This document shows positions 13,190 to 47,566 of a stretch of 64,000 nucleotides of DNA, piece after piece. The position numbers and the translations under genes are program-made. Origin of the DNA: Escherichia virus TH06. The stretch lies in sequence record MT446386.1; one strand, written 5' to 3'. The notes beneath the pieces were generated by a model. It saw only the letters and a list, made by a program, of their open reading frames with translations, was not told the DNA's origin and did not search any database. Position 1 is the first letter of the stretch; each line of letters opens with the position of its first letter.

Positions 13190-14224
13190 TTATTGTATAC
13201 TCCTGAATATTTTCCTAGCATCTAATATCGGAATGCTTAATCCGAGAGCACCACCCCCTCCTAAATCGTATTGGTCACTCCAAGAGTAAATCATCCTACC
13301 GAAACCTGTGCTGAAAGAAGAGCCATTCATCATGTGAGATCTTGTGTGTTGAAAATACCAACCACTAGTCCTGCCTCTTATTGCTCCGGCTCCGTAAGAT
13401 AGTGGTATCATTGGATAGGCCAGAGATGTGTTACCACCACTCATAGGCATAAATCCCTCAACACTAAAAGGGGTTCTATATGTAGAAAATACACACTGAT
13501 ACCCATTTGGAGAAAAGATATTTAAACCTCCATTATGAGTCGGTACTCCAGAACCATCACAGAAGACGGCAATTCTAACACCGCCAATGGATCCTGTTTG
13601 GTTTGTGTTACCATTATCATGAGACCTGTTCTGGTACACATAAACAACCCTATTGGATGGATTGTATAGAAGCCCTGCTCCTCCGTTACTCCAATTTGCG
13701 TAGACAGTTGCTCGGCTCATATCAAAACCACCAATATCTGGTATTTGAAGAGAACCATTTATGTCACCTTCCCAAGCCCAAATACATTGACCAACAACTC
13801 CAGAATCAGAGATTGAGAAATAGTCAGCAGAGTTGGAGAATGTGATTCCATAGTTCCTATTAGCTCTAGGCCATATTTGATACACATTAAAAGCCATATC
13901 AAATATCCAACCGTTTACGTTATAGTCCATAGTAACTCTGAAGGTTGAGTTATTAATAACAGATATGTCAGTTATCCAATATACATCAGATGTTAAATTG
14001 GGAGGTATGTATCTCTCCCAAACAACAGACCCTGTTGGAACTATAACTATCTGACCACTACCATCCCAACCACTTATAGGCAAGTCACAGGTATTTCCAC
14101 TAAAAGAGAAATTCCCACTGACCCTATTTCTGAGTTGAGGGAATGTGCTACCACTATCAATATAAATATCAGCAGGGGCCGCTGGACCCGGACCAACCGG
14201 GCGTGTCCATATTCCATATGCCAT
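13190..14224 (-). CDS. tail / structural protein
   Basis: ORF in tail module; no specific motif recognised. Confidence 0.35.
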   Translation of the reverse strand: MAYGIWTRPVGPGPAAPADIYIDSGSTFPQLRNRVSGNFSFSGNTCDLPISGWDGSGQIVIVPTGSVVWERYIPPNLTSDVYWITDISVINNSTFRVTMDYNVNGWIFDMAFNVYQIWPRANRNYGITFSNSADYFSISDSGVVGQCIWAWEGDINGSLQIPDIGGFDMSRATVYANWSNGGAGLLYNPSNRVVYVYQNRSHDNGNTNQTGSIGGVRIAVFCDGSGVPTHNGGLNIFSPNGYQCVFSTYRTPFSVEGFMPMSGGNTSLAYPMIPLSYGAGAIRGRTSGWYFQHTRSHMMNGSSFSTGFGRMIYSWSDQYDLGGGGALGLSIPILDARKIFRSIQ

Positions 14225-14225
14225 G

Positions 14226-15260
14226 TTACCAACTCCCTATTCTTATGCGAAGAGTTCCACTCCCATCATAAAAATCTATTCTATTACCATTCATCCACAA
14301 CTGAGAACCACCTGTACCACCCATAACAAAATCACCACCAACAGTAAGTCTCCAGTTAGAACCCCACATAGAGCCAGCAGTAATCTTATCCGCTGACAAG
14401 TTCTGAATCTGAGCATTGGAGATGGATACGTTATCGATCTGTGCCCATTGGATTCTAGCGTTAGCAATCTGAGCTGTTGTGATATTGACATTCTTTATAT
14501 CAGCAAATTCCATCCTAGCTCGCCCACCCTCAAACACGAAGGGAGTATTCCCAGAGCTACCATCACCAACAATAAATTTGTTAGCTGTTACTTGGAATTG
14601 ACTGTTTGTACCATTATTAGTTAACTTGACCCCAGCATATCTTCCGTTGACTGTAGAGTTAATACCCCACGTAGCTTCATACTCAGAGAGTTTCATATAC
14701 TGAGAAAGGCTTCCGTTGATATTTTGTAGTTCTGTCTGAACAAGAGCAATCTCTTGACCTTGATCGTTAACAATACCTTCTACTGTCTGAATTTTAGTTG
14801 TGTTACCTTCGATGCTGGTCTTAAAACCAGATACAGTGCTTTCTAGCTTCACAGGGGGTTGAACAGAATTATCCCAAATGTCCTCAGTGGACAGGTTCCC
14901 CATCTGGGTTTGGATATCTGCAATAGCTGTTTCTATCTCTGTAGTAATTCTATTCTCAAGCTCATCAAATTGTAGATTCATTGCATTAAGAGCTTTAATA
15001 CGAACATCAATCTCTTCGTGAATTTCATCTATAGCTTGGAACATTTGGTTAGTAGCTGTGCTAACTTTTTGTAATTCATCATACACGGCTACGTTATATG
15101 TTTCTGTGTCCTGTACATTATTGAGAAACCCAACGTTGTACGGGAGTGTGGTGTTATTGCGACCAGTGTTCTTACGAAAACCACCTGCACCCATAAGTTC
15201 CTCCAAAACAATAAAAGGGGCACGAAGCCCCTTGTTGTTATCTCCGCCCGCCAACAGCAA
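14226..15260 (-). CDS. tail fibre protein
   Basis: C-terminal repeat ANARIQWAQIDNVSISNAQIQNLSADKITAG resembling phage tail-fibre repeats. Confidence 0.45.
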   Translation of the reverse strand: MLLAGGDNNKGLRAPFIVLEELMGAGGFRKNTGRNNTTLPYNVGFLNNVQDTETYNVAVYDELQKVSTATNQMFQAIDEIHEEIDVRIKALNAMNLQFDELENRITTEIETAIADIQTQMGNLSTEDIWDNSVQPPVKLESTVSGFKTSIEGNTTKIQTVEGIVNDQGQEIALVQTELQNINGSLSQYMKLSEYEATWGINSTVNGRYAGVKLTNNGTNSQFQVTANKFIVGDGSSGNTPFVFEGGRARMEFADIKNVNITTAQIANARIQWAQIDNVSISNAQIQNLSADKITAGSMWGSNWRLTVGGDFVMGGTGGSQLWMNGNRIDFYDGSGTLRIRIGSW

Positions 15261-34289: not shown

Positions 34290-34536
34290 TTGTATCTCCC
34301 TTGCTGTAATCTTTGTATGTTTCTTTTCTGTAAGTGCGGAATGCTCTGAAGAAGAGCCAACCAAAACTACTTACATCAATTGTAATATCGAAATCTGTTT
34401 CATCATCTAAATCAACAAGACGGCCTAAGCAAGTAGCTTCCATCCCTTCTTCAGAGTCACTGTTGACCACGAAAGCGTATGTCTCCGTTCTGAACCGAGG
34501 CACCATCTCTGATAAAAAGTCTAGTACTAAATTCAT
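34282..34536 (-). CDS. hypothetical acidic protein (84 aa)
   Basis: ATG preceded by GAGGAGAAG. Confidence 0.4.
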   Translation of the reverse strand: MNLVLDFLSEMVPRFRTETYAFVVNSDSEEGMEATCLGRLVDLDDETDFDITIDVSSFGWLFFRAFRTYRKETYKDYSKGDTNE

Positions 34537-34768
34537 AATTCTTCTCCTCTGAATAAGAGTATAAAGGGCACATCATAAGACCTACCCGTAAAGGCCACCT
34601 CACATTAACACCCGTGAGAATACCTGTATTCATTTTCGTAGTCTTCTTCAGAGAAGCTACCGTATTCATCTTCTGTCATACATCCCTCTGATAAAGTTAA
34701 GACATAAAGGGGACGTCATCTTTGATGACTACTTCACATTAAGGCACCCCCATAAAGGCCATGTCACG

Positions 34769-34933
34769 TTAAGGCCTATCCATCCATGTGCTGTGTTTAA
34801 GCTTACCACATTTACTACATCTCCAAGTGGACTTATAAAGGGTGTGAACTCTTTCATCCCCGTAAGCTTTGCGTATCCGATAGTACTCATGATCACATTT
34901 GAATTGCTTAATGATTAACTTAATTTTCCACAT
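34769..34933 (-). CDS. small Cys-containing protein (54 aa), first ORF of the late operon
   Basis: Hand-translated MWKIKLIIKQFKCDHEYY...WRCSKCGKLKH; below the track cutoff. Confidence 0.3.
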   Translation of the reverse strand: MWKIKLIIKQFKCDHEYYRIRKAYGDERVHTLYKSTWRCSKCGKLKHSTWMDRP

Positions 34934-35658
34934 AAGTTCTCTTTCAACCTTATATATAAGAGTTTAAAATTCTGATTTGACTGAGTAGGGCTAGCCGCTT
35001 CCCGCGCGTTTCCTAAAAGGGGGGAGTCCTCATTTAAAAAAGGGTTATTGGCAATGCCTTTACCTTCCTTTTCAACGTTCCACTTTTCCCCGTGCCTACT
35101 CCCCGTTATTCTTTCCCCGTGTATACCATCCTATTCATTAGCTACCCGTTTATTTAGTACCCCTTTAAAGAGTGAGAGAAAGGCTATACTCTGATAACGG
35201 TCTGTTAAGGCGTGATAATAACAGGTCTAATAATACCCCTAGTTACTACCCCATTCCCCCATAGTTACGTTGATAATAGTTTCAATAGTAATGATTATGA
35301 GTGCAATAATGATATATGTATTAATTAAGTGGATGATTGTGTTTCTTTTATTCTTTTCTTTTTCAGCGTGCCTTTGTGAGCGTAGCGAACGTCTTTGATG
35401 TTTGAGTTATACAATTATTTAAGTGGTATATTATTACCGCACTATCTTGCTATGTTTCCCCGTGGTCTGTTCTGCGGTTGTGTGTTCCCCGTTTGCCCTG
35501 GTCTGTTGGTCTGCTACCCGTAGCACCAGCGTAACACCCGTAGGATTAGTGTTATAAAGTAACAATAGCTAGTAAGCTGATTCTCTGAGTATGGAAAGTT
35601 TAGTAAATTAAATTCCTTTAGTTTTCAGTGAGTTATAAGAAAGTTAGAAAATAAATGG

Positions 35659-35686
35659 TTGACAGGTTTTTCCTTTATTATATAGT
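35659..35686 (+). promoter_or_regulatory. sigma70-type early promoter
   Basis: TTGACA, 16 nt spacer, TATAGT; A-rich upstream; about 45 nt before the ATG at 35731. Confidence 0.5.
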
Positions 35687-35730
35687 TGCGATTGTAATTT
35701 GTAGTTTTCATCAACCATAAGGAATATCAA

Positions 35731-36603
35731 ATGTCTAAAGTAGCAATTAACCACTTGAACAAAGCAAACGAAAGTCTTTCCTCTTTAGGCTTAACTGTTG
35801 GTAGTCCTGATGCGTGGATGGAAAACGAAAGCGCACGTAAAGGATTCAAAAACTCTGTAATGCTGGCTTGCTTGATCATTAATTCTACTGCGAACGCTTT
35901 ACAGTGTGAAGATGAAAGCACGTTCAAAGAGAACGGTTTTACCGATATGCAGGACGCTATCAATTGTTACATTCAAGCGAATTTGGATAGCTGGAATCAG
36001 AAAGATTGGCCTGAGTCATGCCGTGATGTGAAAGCTGAATTATCCCGCTTGTCTGTCATGGTTGAAGCATGGAACAAGAAAAACAAGAAACAGCCAATCA
36101 AGCCTACTGTTGCAAGTAAGATTATGAAGTCTGTTAATCTGGCAAGTTATGCACTGGTTGCAGCTATCGGTGTTAGTGCACTGGTCACATCTCTTTCTGA
36201 TAAGGCTATCGCTAGTCCTGCTCCTGCAACTGATGCGGCTAGTGTCTTCTCTAGTTCCATCAATAAGGGTTGGATGATTTGCAACGGTGCGGATAGTGAC
36301 AGCAATAATATCGTGCTAAAGATGAAATTTAGCAACGTAACAAATGATGGCGTTCTCTTTCAATCTAAAACGTTAGATAATCAGCCTAACAGTGATCTAG
36401 TTCTCAAGCGTACTGATAACGATGCGGATATGGTGACATTTGGCACTGTACAACGTTACGAAGACGTTAAAGCTGTAACCAACCTAGTGAGCTATGGCCC
36501 GATCAATGAGTCGATGATTGCTACAACTGTTTACAATAACGCTGATAACGCTGTTTATACCGTTCACGTTAATTTAGCCAACTGTATTAAGGCTAGTAAG
36601 TAA
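35731..36603 (+). CDS. early membrane-associated protein
   Basis: RBS AAGGAA; central hydrophobic helix VNLASYALVAAIGVSALVTSL. Confidence 0.5.
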   Translation: MSKVAINHLNKANESLSSLGLTVGSPDAWMENESARKGFKNSVMLACLIINSTANALQCEDESTFKENGFTDMQDAINCYIQANLDSWNQKDWPESCRDVKAELSRLSVMVEAWNKKNKKQPIKPTVASKIMKSVNLASYALVAAIGVSALVTSLSDKAIASPAPATDAASVFSSSINKGWMICNGADSDSNNIVLKMKFSNVTNDGVLFQSKTLDNQPNSDLVLKRTDNDADMVTFGTVQRYEDVKAVTNLVSYGPINESMIATTVYNNADNAVYTVHVNLANCIKASK

Positions 36604-37243: not shown

Positions 37244-37609
37244 ATGGGTATTATCAAATTTGTAGTAAAAGTATTCGTGGGCTTCTTCCTTGTCGTTCTC
37301 CTGCTGGGTGTGCTCCTATCGGCTATGGGTAGCGTTAAGGCTGCAACATTCTCCCCTGCTACGGTTGACGGCTTGCAATGTACTTATCTTGTAGAAAACT
37401 ATGAAACCGGTAAAAAGTCACCTAAAGTTATTATTTTGCATGTAAATGATTTCGATCATGTGCAATCATATGATAAAACTGTTCAACTGGTAAATGAAAC
37501 AACCGGTAAACAAGTCATGATTGATCACTTGATGCGCTCATCGTTAACGCTCTTTGATGAGTCCATGAATGAAATTGAATCCGGTAACGGTCAATGTGTA
37601 AATCCATAG
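37244..37609 (+). CDS. secreted/membrane protein
   Basis: RBS AGGTGA 9 nt upstream; N-terminal signal-like hydrophobic region. Confidence 0.45.
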   Translation: MGIIKFVVKVFVGFFLVVLLLGVLLSAMGSVKAATFSPATVDGLQCTYLVENYETGKKSPKVIILHVNDFDHVQSYDKTVQLVNETTGKQVMIDHLMRSSLTLFDESMNEIESGNGQCVNP

Positions 37610-38119: not shown

Positions 38120-38148
38120 TTGACACCAGAAAAAGCCTGATACATAAT
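38120..38148 (+). promoter_or_regulatory. sigma70-type promoter
   Basis: AAAAAGAGTA TTGACA, 17 nt spacer, CATAAT; downstream GAGCACTCA nearly identical to the 38608 promoter. Confidence 0.55.
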
Positions 38149-43902: not shown

Positions 43903-44043
43903 ATGAAGAAGTCAACCAAGCGTATGAACCGTCCTGAGCGTATGGATGCAGTAGCAAATGGTGCACTGAAGATCGAGTCTGCCATGCTGCGTCTGATGGG
44001 TAACATCCGTAAGCGTCAAGGTGGTTGGGTTTACAATAACTGA
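43903..44043 (+). CDS. hypothetical small basic protein (46 aa)
   Basis: Hand-translated MKKSTKRMNRPERMDAV...; weak RBS. Confidence 0.25.
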   Translation: MKKSTKRMNRPERMDAVANGALKIESAMLRLMGNIRKRQGGWVYNN

Positions 44044-44209
44044 TTTAATAAAAGGCTGCCTAGAAATAGGTGGCCTTTGTTGTTTTAATTAAGGGTCAAC
44101 TCTTACTTAAACTAACAACGGGTGTATGGTATTGACAGGCATCGGCACGGAACTTGTTACCAACAAGGTTGGCGAATCAAGACCTCTGTGAAGCTCCGAA
44201 GAAATCAAG

Positions 44210-44237
44210 GCAGGTTCGACTCCTGCTCCCCGACCAA
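44210..44237 (+). other. tRNA-like T-arm plus acceptor-3'-like segment (not a complete tRNA)
   Basis: GCAGG-TTCGACT-CCTGC followed by TCCCCGACCAAATC; no matching 5' acceptor strand found. Confidence 0.2.
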
Positions 44238-44256
44238 ATCAGCAAGAGGTGCTTAT

Positions 44257-44610
44257 ATGAGAAGCATGGTTAAAGATTGGGTAACTAAATCAGGTCTTCG
44301 TGCTGTGATTATGCACATGAACGACTCCCACTTTTGTGGATATGTAGAGCTACCAGACAGCTTAAAACATAAAAACTTCACCGGATATAACGGGAATGAA
44401 GAAGTTTGTTATGTAAGTGTTCATGGTGGTGTCACATGGCAAGATACCCTTGAAGAGATGGATGGTTTAGATACAATCGGATTTGATTGTGCCCATGCAG
44501 GTGATAAGACACGGTTCAACCCTAACGGGGTTCCAAGAACAGAAACGTTCTGCATCAACGAATGCGAACAAATGGCTGAACAACTAAGAGATCTCGAATC
44601 AAATGTCTAA
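44257..44610 (+). CDS. hypothetical protein
   Basis: ATG with RBS AGAGGTG; the track's longer form starts in unlikely upstream sequence. Confidence 0.45.
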   Translation: MRSMVKDWVTKSGLRAVIMHMNDSHFCGYVELPDSLKHKNFTGYNGNEEVCYVSVHGGVTWQDTLEEMDGLDTIGFDCAHAGDKTRFNPNGVPRTETFCINECEQMAEQLRDLESNV

Positions 44611-44779
44611 GCAAACAATCAAACATACGCAAGCTGGTTACTCTTATATCAACTCTCCTTGTTGTGGTGCTCGTGTGAATCTGGTTAAGGAAGAGGTTCG
44701 TATCGTTCAGCGTGGCGCTACTGTTGTCCGTTCATGCTGTGTCTGTGGTAATGACATTTTTATCAAAGGTAAAGTATGA
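44603..44779 (+). CDS. small zinc-ribbon-like protein (58 aa)
   Basis: SPCCGARV ... SCCVCGND; below the track cutoff; ATGA overlap with next gene. Confidence 0.35.
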   Translation: MSKQTIKHTQAGYSYINSPCCGARVNLVKEEVRIVQRGATVVRSCCVCGNDIFIKGKV

Positions 44780-45027
44780 AAAACTTCCAAGCTGCACCAA
44801 TCACGAAAGTTATTTCAGTTGATGATGTGATGATGACTGTTCCTCTGAACACTCGTTACATTGCAATTGACAAGATGGGTTATGTATGGGCTTGGAAGAT
44901 TAAGCCTAGCTATAACGCACTGTTCGACGAGTTTGTTTGTACTGGTACGTATAGCCCTACGTTCTTGGGTTTGTTTGGAGAGTTCGAAGGTCAGTATAAA
45001 ATCATCACTCTCCCTGCTTGTGCTTGA
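44776..45027 (+). CDS. hypothetical protein
   Basis: ORF with start/stop overlap. Confidence 0.45.
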   Translation: MKNFQAAPITKVISVDDVMMTVPLNTRYIAIDKMGYVWAWKIKPSYNALFDEFVCTGTYSPTFLGLFGEFEGQYKIITLPACA

Positions 45028-45034
45028 GGTTAGT

Positions 45035-45199
45035 ATGTTCAAGTGGTTTAAACGTCTATTCCATCTGCACGATTGGGTAATTCTCGAGAAGTATACACTA
45101 AAGATCACTGATGATTATGGTGGTACGAAACATAAAGGTTTACGTTATATCATGCAGTGCAAAACATGTGGTTGTATCACCAAGCGGGATATGATCTAA
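45035..45199 (+). CDS. small Cys-containing protein
   Basis: RBS GAGGT; CKTCGC motif; C-terminal part of track ORF 44861..45199. Confidence 0.35.
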   Translation: MFKWFKRLFHLHDWVILEKYTLKITDDYGGTKHKGLRYIMQCKTCGCITKRDMI

Positions 45200-45207
45200 A
45201 TAATTCT

Positions 45208-45283
45208 GCGCTCTTAGCTCAATGGATAGAGCAGTAGCCTTCTAAGCTATTGGTTACAGGTTCGAGTCCTGTAGGGCGCACCA
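45208..45283 (+). tRNA. tRNA-Arg (anticodon TCT)
   Basis: Hand-folded cloverleaf: acceptor GCGCTCT/AGGGCGC with one G-U, D-arm GCTC/GAGC, anticodon stem GTAGC/GCTAT, loop CTTCTAA, T-arm ACAGG-TTCGAGT-CCTGT, encoded CCA. Confidence 0.7.
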
Positions 45284-45377
45284 CATTTAGGGCTAGTATG
45301 GGTGCGGCACCAGAGTTAGTGTATCCCTGTTGAGGCAAGTGCTTTTATAACAGTGGGAATTACTTTCTTAGTGAGCT

Positions 45378-45404
45378 TCTGGTTCGATTCCAGATAGTCC
45401 ACCA
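45378..45404 (+). other. second tRNA-like T-arm plus 3' segment (no canonical cloverleaf)
   Basis: TCTGG-TTCGATT-CCAGA followed by TAGTCCACCAAATC; shares the ACCAAATC tail with 44210..44237. Confidence 0.2.
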
Positions 45405-45423
45405 AATCTAATAGGAGGTAATT

Positions 45424-45723
45424 ATGAGTTGGGGTGGTGTAATATCCTTAATCTGTATCTTCCTTGTCTGTGTGGCCCTTACAGGCTGCGTACAGAGCCG
45501 CCCTGATGGGTGGTGTGCAGTAGCAGTGGATGGTATTTGTGTATCTCGCTGGCATTCAGGAAACAAGATTCCTAGTGGTGAGATTGATATGCGCTACAAC
45601 GGGGCAACCTGCTCTAATGCTAACCCTTCTATCAACGAAGAGAAGTCTACGCCAGACAATGTTGTGATCGATACAGCGTTGTGGTGTGGCGGTTCTGTAA
45701 CAACAACCGGTAAGGAGTGGTAA
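45424..45723 (+). CDS. lipoprotein (possible superinfection-exclusion protein)
   Basis: Signal peptide with lipobox ALTGC; Cys-rich mature part; early-region location. Confidence 0.45.
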   Translation: MSWGGVISLICIFLVCVALTGCVQSRPDGWCAVAVDGICVSRWHSGNKIPSGEIDMRYNGATCSNANPSINEEKSTPDNVVIDTALWCGGSVTTTGKEW

Positions 45724-45724
45724 T

Positions 45725-45886
45725 GTGACTATTGAAGAACTCATTAGAACTCTTGAAAACTTATCTGTTACTTGTGGTCCAGATGCTATCGTCTACATCG
45801 AAGAACCTTCAGGGAATGAATACCCTGTGAAAGAGGTTCTTGAGTACTCAGTAGGAGATCTTTCATCAGTAACCCTAAGACATTGA
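45725..45886 (+). CDS. hypothetical small protein (GTG start)
   Basis: AAGGAG 7 nt upstream of GTG; hand-translated. Confidence 0.25.
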   Translation: MTIEELIRTLENLSVTCGPDAIVYIEEPSGNEYPVKEVLEYSVGDLSSVTLRH

Positions 45887-45887
45887 G

Positions 45888-46142
45888 GTGTATATGACAG
45901 CTCATTATTGGAATACAAAGAAGCTTCTTGAAGAGATGGCTGGGGGTAGTAAGTTCCAGTTAAACTCCATGCTTCGAATGGATGCCCGCTCTTTACGTTT
46001 CCAAGTAAAGATTGGTAACTTCAGTGATGGACTTTATTATACCTTGAAAGAAAGGATTAAGAAGACTCACTTCATCATATATGGACTCAAACCGAGAACA
46101 TATGTTAACTACATGTATTGGGATACATGCTACGATAATTGA
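45888..46142 (+). CDS. hypothetical protein
   Basis: RBS GAGGTG. Confidence 0.45.
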   Translation: MYMTAHYWNTKKLLEEMAGGSKFQLNSMLRMDARSLRFQVKIGNFSDGLYYTLKERIKKTHFIIYGLKPRTYVNYMYWDTCYDN

Positions 46143-46149
46143 GGTTATT

Positions 46150-46371
46150 ATGTTATTTGAAGCTAAGCAAACATTACCAGTAGTTCCTTTGTCTACACTT
46201 CTTAGTGGGAGTGCTTTTAGACATGATAATGGTTTTTGGATTAAGGGCGACCAAGAGGTTGGAGGGTATATTACCTGCATCAACATCTGCAACGGCGTTG
46301 TTGACGGATTTCGTCCAGCCGCTGAAGTCACTCCTCAATCCAACGCAAAGGTTGTAGGTTTAGTTTACTAA
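46150..46371 (+). CDS. hypothetical protein
   Basis: In-frame ATG with RBS GAGG inside track ORF 46081..46371. Confidence 0.4.
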   Translation: MLFEAKQTLPVVPLSTLLSGSAFRHDNGFWIKGDQEVGGYITCINICNGVVDGFRPAAEVTPQSNAKVVGLVY

Positions 46372-46380
46372 GGAGCCTGT

Positions 46381-46554
46381 ATGAGTTGTTTTGGTGGCGG
46401 TGAAGTAGATGACGATGATGACATGGAATCCAACGGTACATGCCCTGATTGTGGGTGTGAGACATTTGATGGGGTGTCAGTATATCCTGCCTGTAGTTAC
46501 TCACCAGTGATCTGTAAAACATGTGGAGATCAGCCTTGTGATCAATCTTGTTAA
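46381..46554 (+). CDS. small Cys-rich acidic protein (57 aa)
   Basis: Strong RBS AAGGAG; CPDCGC ... CKTCGDQPC. Confidence 0.4.
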   Translation: MSCFGGGEVDDDDDMESNGTCPDCGCETFDGVSVYPACSYSPVICKTCGDQPCDQSC

Positions 46555-46563
46555 GAGAATCTT

Positions 46564-46695
46564 ATGACTGAAGAATTTTTAGAGTGGTTTAGTGACACCT
46601 TCAAAGAATACCTATTCACTCCAGAAAGTTTAGAAGAGTTGAAAACCTACACTTGGTTGGCTTGGAGAGATAGCCGACGAAAAATGAATAAGTAA
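46564..46695 (+). CDS. hypothetical small protein (43 aa)
   Basis: Hand-translated. Confidence 0.25.
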   Translation: MTEEFLEWFSDTFKEYLFTPESLEELKTYTWLAWRDSRRKMNK

Positions 46696-46706
46696 GAGAC
46701 GATTAA

Positions 46707-46964
46707 ATGGGTTTACTTGATATTTTTATCTCAGTTTACTTTATTGGAGTATTCCTCTCTGTTTTAGTGCTGAAACTGCTATACAAGAAAGGTCTACTAA
46801 AAGGGGTCATTACAACAGAGTCTACCAGCTCTGAACCTGATGAGATGATGGTTGTGCTCTTAATTGTGTTGTGGCCTATCTCAATACTGGCAGGAGTTTT
46901 TTATCCAATAGGTTTGCTTCTGTTTAAAGCATATGACGCAGTTATGCATTTTATCTTTAAGTAA
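46707..46964 (+). CDS. small membrane protein
   Basis: Two hydrophobic helices. Confidence 0.45.
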   Translation: MGLLDIFISVYFIGVFLSVLVLKLLYKKGLLKGVITTESTSSEPDEMMVVLLIVLWPISILAGVFYPIGLLLFKAYDAVMHFIFK

Positions 46965-47175
46965 TATCGTGAAGGATTCTTACGAGAGTCCTTTGAGATA
47001 GGACTTCAGATCTCCTATCAAACTAACATTCATGTAACTAGCCCATAAGGGCGTTACCCTTTAATAACCCAGCCCACTAAGGGGGCGGGAGTTTAGTGCT
47101 GGATTGGCTTTACGCTTATTCCTACAAAGGCAACCGATTGTTAGATCTTACATGCAATATTAACTAATAGGATAA

Positions 47176-47206
47176 GGGAGGATTCGTCCCCTCCCCCTAT
47201 TTTATT
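47176..47206 (+). terminator. intrinsic terminator (weaker U-tract)
   Basis: GGGAGG-ATTCGTC-CCTCCC then CCTATTTTATT. Confidence 0.45.
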
Positions 47207-47254
47207 GAATCTTTATCTAAGCAAGTCTTACATAAATATTTAATTGGAGGATGT

Positions 47255-47566
47255 ATGAAAGCTCGAAGAACTATATGGACTCCGATGCAGATTGAAAATC
47301 TTCGGAGACTAATCAAAGAGTACTCGGTTCAAGAAGTTGCTCAGATTATGAATGTAACGGAGAATGCAGTTAACACAGCTTGTACTAAATTCGGAATATC
47401 AAGAGCTTCAGTCCGAGTTAAATGGTCTGAAGAAGAAGATCAGTTCCTTATCCGTAATGCTGGGTTCATGCCTATTCAGAGAATGGCTGACATGCTCGGT
47501 AGAAGTTATGCTGCTGTACAGAACAGGGCATGTATGCACCTTAATATTAGCCTCAAACTTAAATAG
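47255..47566 (+). CDS. putative DNA-binding protein with two HTH-like repeats
   Basis: Internal repeat W(T/S)..Q...L...I...... both ending in A(V/A)(N/Q)(T/N)(A/R)A. Confidence 0.4.
   Translation: MKARRTIWTPMQIENLRRLIKEYSVQEVAQIMNVTENAVNTACTKFGISRASVRVKWSEEEDQFLIRNAGFMPIQRMADMLGRSYAAVQNRACMHLNISLKLK

Follow-up and report, generated by a model that had tools for sequence, protein, structure and literature searches.

The question raised by positions 45424..45723 of Escherichia virus TH06 (sequence record MT446386.1) is why a short-tailed phage should encode a small lipoprotein among its apparently early genes, and on which component of the host envelope that lipoprotein would act. The stretch of DNA analysed, referred to throughout as the window, is 64,000 nucleotides long and belongs to a Kuravirus, a phiEco32/SU10-like podovirus of the subfamily Gordonclarkvirinae. 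The product of 45424..45723 is a member of the family of Rtp45, the exclusion lipoprotein of a siphophage that uses LptD, and the same window encodes a homologue of the receptor-binding proteins that dock on LptD. The reading considered likely here is that the protein is an outer-membrane lipoprotein that binds the lipopolysaccharide (LPS) translocon LptDE and blocks receptor-binding proteins of the DUF6453 type, with LptD being the terminal receptor of the Kuraviruses themselves. The features of the lipoprotein locus are as follows.

45424..45723, plus strand: prolipoprotein gene of the Rtp45 family (PF24052), 99 amino acids, ATG start, orthologue of phi32_106.
45413..45418, plus strand: Shine-Dalgarno sequence AGGAGG, 5 nucleotides upstream of the ATG.

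The N terminus of the product, MSWGGVISLICIFLVCVALTG followed by Cys-22, consists of a signal peptide (residues 1-21) running into the lipobox L-T-G-C, with a hydrophobic h-region (Kyte-Doolittle 19-residue mean up to 2.7) and a predicted lipid-modified cysteine encoded at 45487..45489. The mature protein contains Cys-31, Cys-39, Cys-63 and Cys-88 in addition to Cys-22. These features bear out the initial annotation, which had described a signal peptide with lipobox LTGC and a Cys-rich mature domain, and they are not a matter of chance, as each of 10 homologues of the Kuravirus type keeps the signal peptide, the lipobox and every one of the five cysteines. The layout of the protein is a conserved core (residues 23-63, RPDGWC...C..W..G..P.GE.D.RY.G), a hypervariable loop (residues 64-87) closed by the two invariant cysteines Cys-63 and Cys-88, and a conserved tail (GS..T.GKEW). 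Mean pairwise identity among the 10 homologues is 0.94 in the signal peptide, 0.81 in the core and 0.79 in the C terminus, compared with 0.44 in the loop, where the minimum is 0.04 and indels occur. The orthologue in phiEco32, phi32_106, is 74% identical and annotated "putative phage lipoprotein." A scan of all open reading frames (ORFs) of at least 35 amino acids on both strands left this protein as the sole credible lipoprotein in the 64-kb window; the one other match, a frame of 35-42 amino acids at 35270, was dismissed as a junk ORF. Under the E. coli Lol rule, a residue other than Asp at position +2 directs a lipoprotein to the outer membrane. The residues at the lipobox cysteine are C22-V23-Q24, and since the +2 residue is Val rather than Asp, the protein is predicted to be sorted to the outer membrane.

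The lipoprotein matches the PF24052 profile (Phage lipoprotein family) with an E value of 8e-35 and 119.1 bits against a cut-off of 27, residues 3-99 being aligned to profile positions 1-80 of 80 and thus over its full length; Rtp45 scores 128 bits with the same profile. Among all PDB sequences the only meaningful match is 9rps_D (E 2.8e-14), which is Rtp45 of siphophage Rtp (UniProt Q333D9). Rtp45 is the superinfection-exclusion lipoprotein of an LptD-dependent phage and was solved bound to LptDEM (PNAS 2025, PMC12685063). It occupies the periplasmic side of LptD close to strands 5-8, with LptE and LptM on either side, contains a Cys-30 to Cys-38 disulphide, and directs a long hairpin up through the LptD lumen that shifts extracellular loop 4 by up to 20 Å, a displacement incompatible with docking of the receptor-binding protein (PMC12685063). 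The alignment of the window lipoprotein with Rtp45 extends from the signal peptide as far as residue 66 and resumes at the C terminus (TGKEW vs GSKEWN), the mature proteins being 47.6% identical over 42 amino acids (E 5e-16). Cys-31 and Cys-39 align with Cys-30 and Cys-38 of Rtp45 and are invariant in the family. In an alignment of 20 family members, all of which have the lipobox cysteine, the invariant residues (C22, G29, C31, C39 and G60) are without exception present in the window protein, as are the near-invariant W43, G46, G52, D55, R57 and Y58 and the C-terminal KEW.

Rtp45 and the related SE_Oeko (bas18_0026) therefore share with the window lipoprotein a full-length PF24052 match, a signal peptidase II signal with lipobox, the disulphide pair, the KEW ending and a common hairpin motif, W..G..VP.GE.D.RY.G, and each of these proteins is found in a genome that also encodes a DUF6453 receptor-binding protein. 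Differences are apparent in the setting, as the window phage is a podovirus in which the gene lies in an early-type cluster after a tRNA and not downstream of gpJ. Compared with Rtp45, the window protein also has the hypervariable insert between Cys-63 and Cys-88 and an n-region without Lys or Arg. The insert is absent from Rtp45 and present in some other members (clusters P0010, P0011 and P0020). P0011 has a different signal peptide, yet carries nearly the same 36-amino acid insert as the Kuravirus variant P0008, which suggests that the mature lipoprotein domain has been exchanged between phage groups.

An exhaustive hidden Markov model (HMM) search of 1.84 billion representative proteins returned 17 clusters, compared with only 9 lipoprotein clusters from a word-indexed protein search. 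Fifteen of the 17 are real, and all of these are lipoproteins of 73-109 amino acids with the same core, making PF24052-type lipoproteins a small family restricted to phages. The other two, P0014 and P0025 (repetitive and apparently eukaryotic), are spurious and arise from the summing of repeats, an artefact that also accounts for the apparent match between the lipoprotein C terminus and designed armadillo repeat proteins in the PDB (i-Evalue >50 for each stretch). The temperate lambdoid Enterobacteria phage mEp021 encodes a PF24052-like lipoprotein with 40% identity over residues 2-60, so the family extends beyond virulent phages.

A small phage lipoprotein with several cysteines could in principle be of another class, either an o-spanin (Rz1-like) or a FhuA blocker of the Cor/Llp type, and T1 Cor does give a weak PF24052 match over residues 3-51, signal peptide included, which at 17.7 bits is below the cut-off of 27. 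The comparisons render such an identity scarcely credible. No i-spanin gene adjoins 45424..45723, whose neighbours are a tRNA and small soluble ORFs, phage Paul has its overlapping o-spanin/i-spanin pair annotated at another place, beside the sigma-factor region, and spanin families of their own are listed for the phiEco32-type phages (PMC6139136). The spanin pair annotated in Paul would fall just past the left end of the window. Mature T1 Cor gives no BLASTP match to the mature lipoprotein and a phmmer score of 7.4 bits that is not meaningful at the size of the comparison, and T5 Llp is not among the PDB sequence matches up to E = 10. Likeness to these proteins would be one of function: T5 Llp is an early outer-membrane lipoprotein that acts from the periplasm on the phage's own receptor, to which the receptor-binding protein then no longer binds (PMC12685063; PMC4728585), and Cor (T1, phi80, N15) is a small exclusion lipoprotein encoded at the siphophage receptor-binding locus. 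Llp differs in having no detectable sequence similarity, in targeting FhuA, in working by long-range allostery as opposed to steric displacement of a loop, and in that llp adjoins oad; Cor differs in its sub-threshold profile match and in its partners ST31 and ST32, which are not DUF6453 proteins.

The second component relevant to an LptD-directed role is encoded in the late region, directly behind the gene for the tail needle.

13190..14224, minus strand: late gene for a 344-amino acid DUF6453 protein, orthologue of SU10_019 (gp19), proposed terminal receptor-binding protein.
14226..15194, minus strand: tail needle gene, product 99% identical to SU10 gp18 (PDB code 7z4b_EA), proposed docking site of the DUF6453 protein.

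A tblastn comparison of Rtp44, the receptor-binding protein of Rtp, with the window gives a match inside 13190..14224 with 25% identity over 286 amino acids (E 1.6e-15). The product belongs to DUF6453 (PF20051; E 1e-25), the Pfam family to which Rtp44 also belongs (E 1e-113), and its only PDB sequence match is the Oekolampad receptor-binding protein with LptDE (9rpt_C, 9rpw and 9rqi; E 1.9e-9). The AlphaFold2 model of the gp19 orthologue, calculated with 24 homologues, has a predicted local distance difference test score (pLDDT) of 79 and a predicted template modelling (TM) score of 0.81. A Foldseek search with this model returns 9rpt_C as the only match at E <=0.001 (E 1e-11, probability 1.0, target-normalised TM score 0.75). 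The lipoprotein and the gp19 orthologue are each homologous to a protein of solved structure, and both structures contain LptD.

The position of the gp19 gene resembles that of its siphophage counterparts. The gene directly follows the needle gene, as SU10_019 lies directly downstream of SU10_018, an order confirmed in SU10 and Paul. The needle contains the Phage_Tail_Tip domain PF09327 at residues 181-267, a domain found at the distal end of the lambda-J-like Rtp43 (residues 971-1099), and residues 71-338 of the needle match residues 904-1115 of Rtp43 by BLASTP (E 4e-6). In Rtp the gene for the lambda-J homologue, rtp43, is followed by the receptor-binding protein gene rtp44 with rtp45 adjoining, and Oekolampad has the same arrangement. 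The order of a J-type tip domain followed by a DUF6453 protein is thus common to rtp43-rtp44 and needle-gp19. The N termini of proteins from receptor-binding loci are also alike (gp19 MAYGIW, Rtp44 MAQGIY, RBP_Oeko MGAGIL, ST31 MSYGAF, ST32 MAYGIS), and this similarity may reflect a shared motif for docking on J-type tip domains (PF09327) across otherwise unrelated receptor-binding families.

The DUF6453 family is informative on receptor identity. In 1,050 genetic screens, four unrelated families encoded downstream of gpJ were each reported to be specifically associated with one of FhuA, BtuB, LptD and YncD (bioRxiv 10.64898/2026.04.02.716166), and DUF6453 is the siphophage family tied specifically to LptD (bioRxiv 10.64898/2026.04.02.716166; PMC8594841). 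Seven BASEL siphophages with this module (Bas01, 02, 14, 18, 19, 20 and 25) are blocked by lptD mutations (PMC8594841). Three of the seven LptD-dependent siphophages, TheodorHerzl, Oekolampad and VogelGryff, are among the lipoprotein/DUF6453 matches obtained here, and neither ST31 nor ST32, encoded at this locus in the FhuA user T1, belongs to DUF6453. Co-occurrence of the two genes was assessed by tblastn with a fusion of both proteins, which gave 574 places in 423 phage records. Both genes are present, at separate places, in 60 of the 60 best-matching records, all of them Gordonclarkvirinae and including SU7, 172-1, phiEc_1 and Bas86/87; with a less exact query, both are also found in all 14 Gordonclarkvirinae of a spread sample. 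In the siphophages the lipoprotein and DUF6453 genes are usually adjacent, as is the case in at least nine lineages, and appear as one joined place.

Several observations weigh against an LptD-directed role for both proteins in the Kuraviruses. The lipoprotein gene lies 31 kb from the receptor-binding protein gene in the window and does not show the adjacency typical of the family. The allele identities of the two proteins are not coupled across Kuravirus genomes, as in SGF2 the receptor-binding protein shows 62.5% and the lipoprotein 93.9% identity, compared with 93.9 and 59.6%, respectively, in the 101114 phages. The gp19 protein is absent from the reported virion proteins and cryo-EM densities of SU10, for which only the major gel bands were analysed, and its identity to the siphophage receptor-binding proteins is only 22-26%. 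The conserved residues of these receptor-binding proteins map to the base and not to the LptD-binding tip (PMC13035648), and since they lie at the base, a receptor switch in gp19 is conceivable. For the lipoprotein, identity to Rtp45 is limited to about 60 residues, the n-region without basic residues is atypical, and the extra Cys-bracketed insert of 24-45 amino acids in the Kuravirus proteins could alter the target or the mode of binding. Its AlphaFold2 model from a 10-sequence alignment is unusable (mean pLDDT 41), a modelling failure also met by the authors of the Rtp45 study with AF3 (PMC12685063). The functional picture of the Kuravirus lipoprotein/gp19 pair as a whole is drawn from homology and gene association.

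Some of these points would equally suit a different explanation, in which the lipoprotein binds LptDE only to exclude competing LptD-dependent siphophages from the infected cell, the Kuravirus itself does not use LptD, and gp19 has another receptor or a role in assembly or ejection. The placement of the lipoprotein gene among early host-takeover genes and apart from gp19, the uncoupled alleles and the lack of gp19 among reported SU10 virion proteins are all compatible with this, and the short tail fibres have been put forward as the structures that contact the cell surface (PMC9509320; PMC11990801). The structural study of SU10 assigns gp16 as short fibre, gp17 as nozzle, gp18 as needle and gp20-24 as ejection proteins, and makes no mention of gp19 (PMC9509320). 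Exclusion of other phages only is nevertheless an unlikely explanation, in view of the presence of both genes together in every Gordonclarkvirinae record sampled, the position of gp19 behind a needle with a J-type tip domain as in the siphophages, and the specific tie of the DUF6453 family to LptD. The uncoupled alleles are not a strong objection to LptD being the Kuravirus receptor because the two proteins would have a single, highly conserved host protein as their target and would bind to opposite faces of it. Nor is the unlinked arrangement unique to the Kuraviruses, because Klebsiella phages of the genus Webervirus (such as TAH8, mtp13 and VAC11), which are siphophages of another host genus, encode PF24052-type lipoproteins (37.6% identity over residues 8-99) about 10 kb from the DUF6453 gene of the same genome.

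On the reading that the lipoprotein protects the phage's own receptor, a mechanism can be proposed by analogy with Rtp45. The lipoprotein would be made from the early-type cluster, exported, lipid-modified at Cys-22 and anchored in the inner leaflet of the outer membrane, where it would bind the periplasmic rim and lumen of the LptD/LptE(/LptM) translocon. Its β-hairpin would rise into the LptD barrel and fix extracellular loop 4 where it prevents receptor-binding proteins of the DUF6453 type from docking. Virions of the phage itself would carry the gp19 orthologue on the tip of the tail needle, so that an infected cell would be protected from superinfection and progeny would be spared wasteful ejection on infected cells and debris. 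Unrelated LptD-dependent siphophages should be excluded whether or not gp19 has this role. A broader proposal, which on balance is slightly favoured, is that Kuraviruses use LptD as terminal receptor by means of a module derived from or exchanged with siphophages, consisting of the J-type tip of the needle, gp19 and a lipoprotein gene that moved to the early region, and that binding of gp19 to LptD triggers needle release and nozzle formation.

Published observations on Kuravirus adsorption can be set beside this proposal. The receptors of SU10 are described as not identified (PMC10743462). Kuravirus-resistant mutants lose only O-antigen (PMC11990801; PMC6393563), which fits a terminal receptor that is essential, and the finding that some phiEco32-like phages infect rough mutants directly via an outer-membrane surface receptor (PMC6393563) fits as well. 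In the literature searched, no link of Kuraviruses, or of any other podovirus of E. coli, with LptD, Rtp45 or DUF6453 was found, nor any test of lptD mutants on Kuraviruses. The genome records of BASEL and CPT annotate both genes as hypothetical or "membrane protein." The lipoprotein family itself is already known, and the analysis adds a testable hypothesis for the terminal receptor and the receptor-binding protein of the Kuraviruses.

The dependence of Kuravirus adsorption on O-antigen (PMC11990801; PMC6393563) also bears on another possible function, namely that the lipoprotein modulates the translocon, affecting the export of LPS or O-antigen, or the integrity of the outer membrane, in the course of takeover or preparation for lysis, with receptor blocking as a side effect. 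With its hairpin in the LptD lumen, Rtp45 is in contact with LptE and also with LptM (PMC12685063), and the Kuravirus proteins have an extra variable loop. No family member is known to work in this way, and the tight linkage of the siphophage family to receptor-binding protein genes favours receptor blocking, so that modulation of LPS transport as the primary function appears quite improbable.

The setting of the lipoprotein gene is consistent with early expression. The features concerned are the following.

35659..35686, plus strand: best sigma-70-like promoter, TTGACA, 16-nucleotide spacer, TATAGT, 11/12 consensus matches, at the head of the early-type cluster.
35731..36603, plus strand: first gene of the early-type cluster, encoding a 290-amino acid bitopic membrane protein with a transmembrane segment at about residues 134-156.
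37244..37609, plus strand: gene for a 121-amino acid protein with an N-terminal signal peptide or signal anchor, its hydrophobic segment ending VKA-A.
45208..45283, plus strand: tRNA-Arg(TCT), directly upstream of the lipoprotein gene.

The late structural genes of the window are on the minus strand from 4193 to 34364, and the plus-strand genes from 35731 onward correspond, in reversed orientation, to the cluster that starts at the right end of the phiEco32 record and proceeds leftward. The region 44000-47500 is 88-98% identical to about 100 Escherichia/Shigella podoviruses of the Gordonclarkvirinae, including TH38, MN05, NJ01, KBNP1711, phiEco32, SU10 and Paul. In phiEco32 the counterpart cluster is of the early class and is transcribed by the host sigma-70 RNA polymerase, and promoters for the phage sigma factor are located upstream of genes 6, 13, 26, 40, 58 and 68 (PMC8948821). 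Two further sigma-70-like promoters with 11/12 matches occur on the plus strand at 38120 and 38608, and all three are consensus matches only. Early expression of 45424..45723 is therefore suggested by the synteny with the phiEco32 early cluster together with these three promoter-like sequences. A search for the boundary between early and middle genes with the phage-sigma (gp36) motif TAATGTATA gave two exact sites, both on the late minus strand, and 17 sites with one mismatch compared with 18.6 expected by chance; as no boundary was placed by the motif, the predicted timing continues to follow from synteny. In phiEco32-type records the physical ends and the terminal repeat correspond to about 34400..35700 of the window, the divergent intergenic region between the late minus-strand and early plus-strand clusters, which means that the window is a permuted or circularised assembly.

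The order of a tRNA followed by the lipoprotein gene is also found in phiEco32. The tRNA-Arg(TCT) and the Shine-Dalgarno sequence of the lipoprotein gene are separated by about 115 nucleotides (45290..45405), compared with only 22 nucleotides between the tRNA and gene 106 in phiEco32. This segment ends in GGTTCGATTCCAGATAGTCCACCA, which resembles the T-arm, acceptor stem and CCA end of a tRNA. ARAGORN and Rfam report no second tRNA in this interval, and the segment may be a decayed one.

The initial annotation had grouped the lipoprotein with the products of 35731..36603 and 37244..37609 as early envelope proteins that might exclude superinfecting phages. The first of these is indeed a membrane protein, with one central hydrophobic segment preceded by KKNKKQPIKP and no N-terminal signal. 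It is modular, the N-terminal part of about 120 amino acids being found also in Klebsiella siphophages and large Escherichia myoviruses, and residues 129-290, comprising the transmembrane segment and the C-terminal domain, being found only in Gordonclarkvirinae and encoded as a separate gene in many relatives (PHROGs 15368 and 21410). The second had been called secreted; the N-terminal hydrophobic segment is present and is compatible with either a signal peptide or a signal anchor. Many GenBank records, as well as PHROG 13168, describe its homologues as "terminase," which is probably a propagated annotation error. Pfam, PHROGs, PADLOC and NCBIfam assign no function to either protein, and the PADLOC and NCBIfam scans of all three envelope proteins and gp19 gave no match. 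As a candidate for exclusion the lipoprotein is supported by its homology to the Rtp45 family and by the DUF6453 gene in the same genome, whereas the other two were proposed from topology and no library function backs them.

The Kuraviruses (phiEco32, SU10 and about 90 sequenced relatives) are common candidates for phage therapy, and the trigger of their tail rearrangement has been described as not known (PMC10743462; PMC9509320). An Rtp45-type lipoprotein, together with a DUF6453 protein encoded beside the needle gene, makes the question of their receptor testable with existing lptD loop-deletion strains. If the proposal is correct, the essential and highly conserved LptD would be a receptor common to small siphophages and a large group of podoviruses, and this would be the first such receptor module in a short-tailed coliphage. 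It would account for resistant mutants that lose only O-antigen, and it would lead one to expect that Kuraviruses and LptD-dependent siphophages exclude each other, a point of relevance to the design of phage cocktails. The receptor module and the exclusion gene would then be separable in the genome, yet kept together in evolution.

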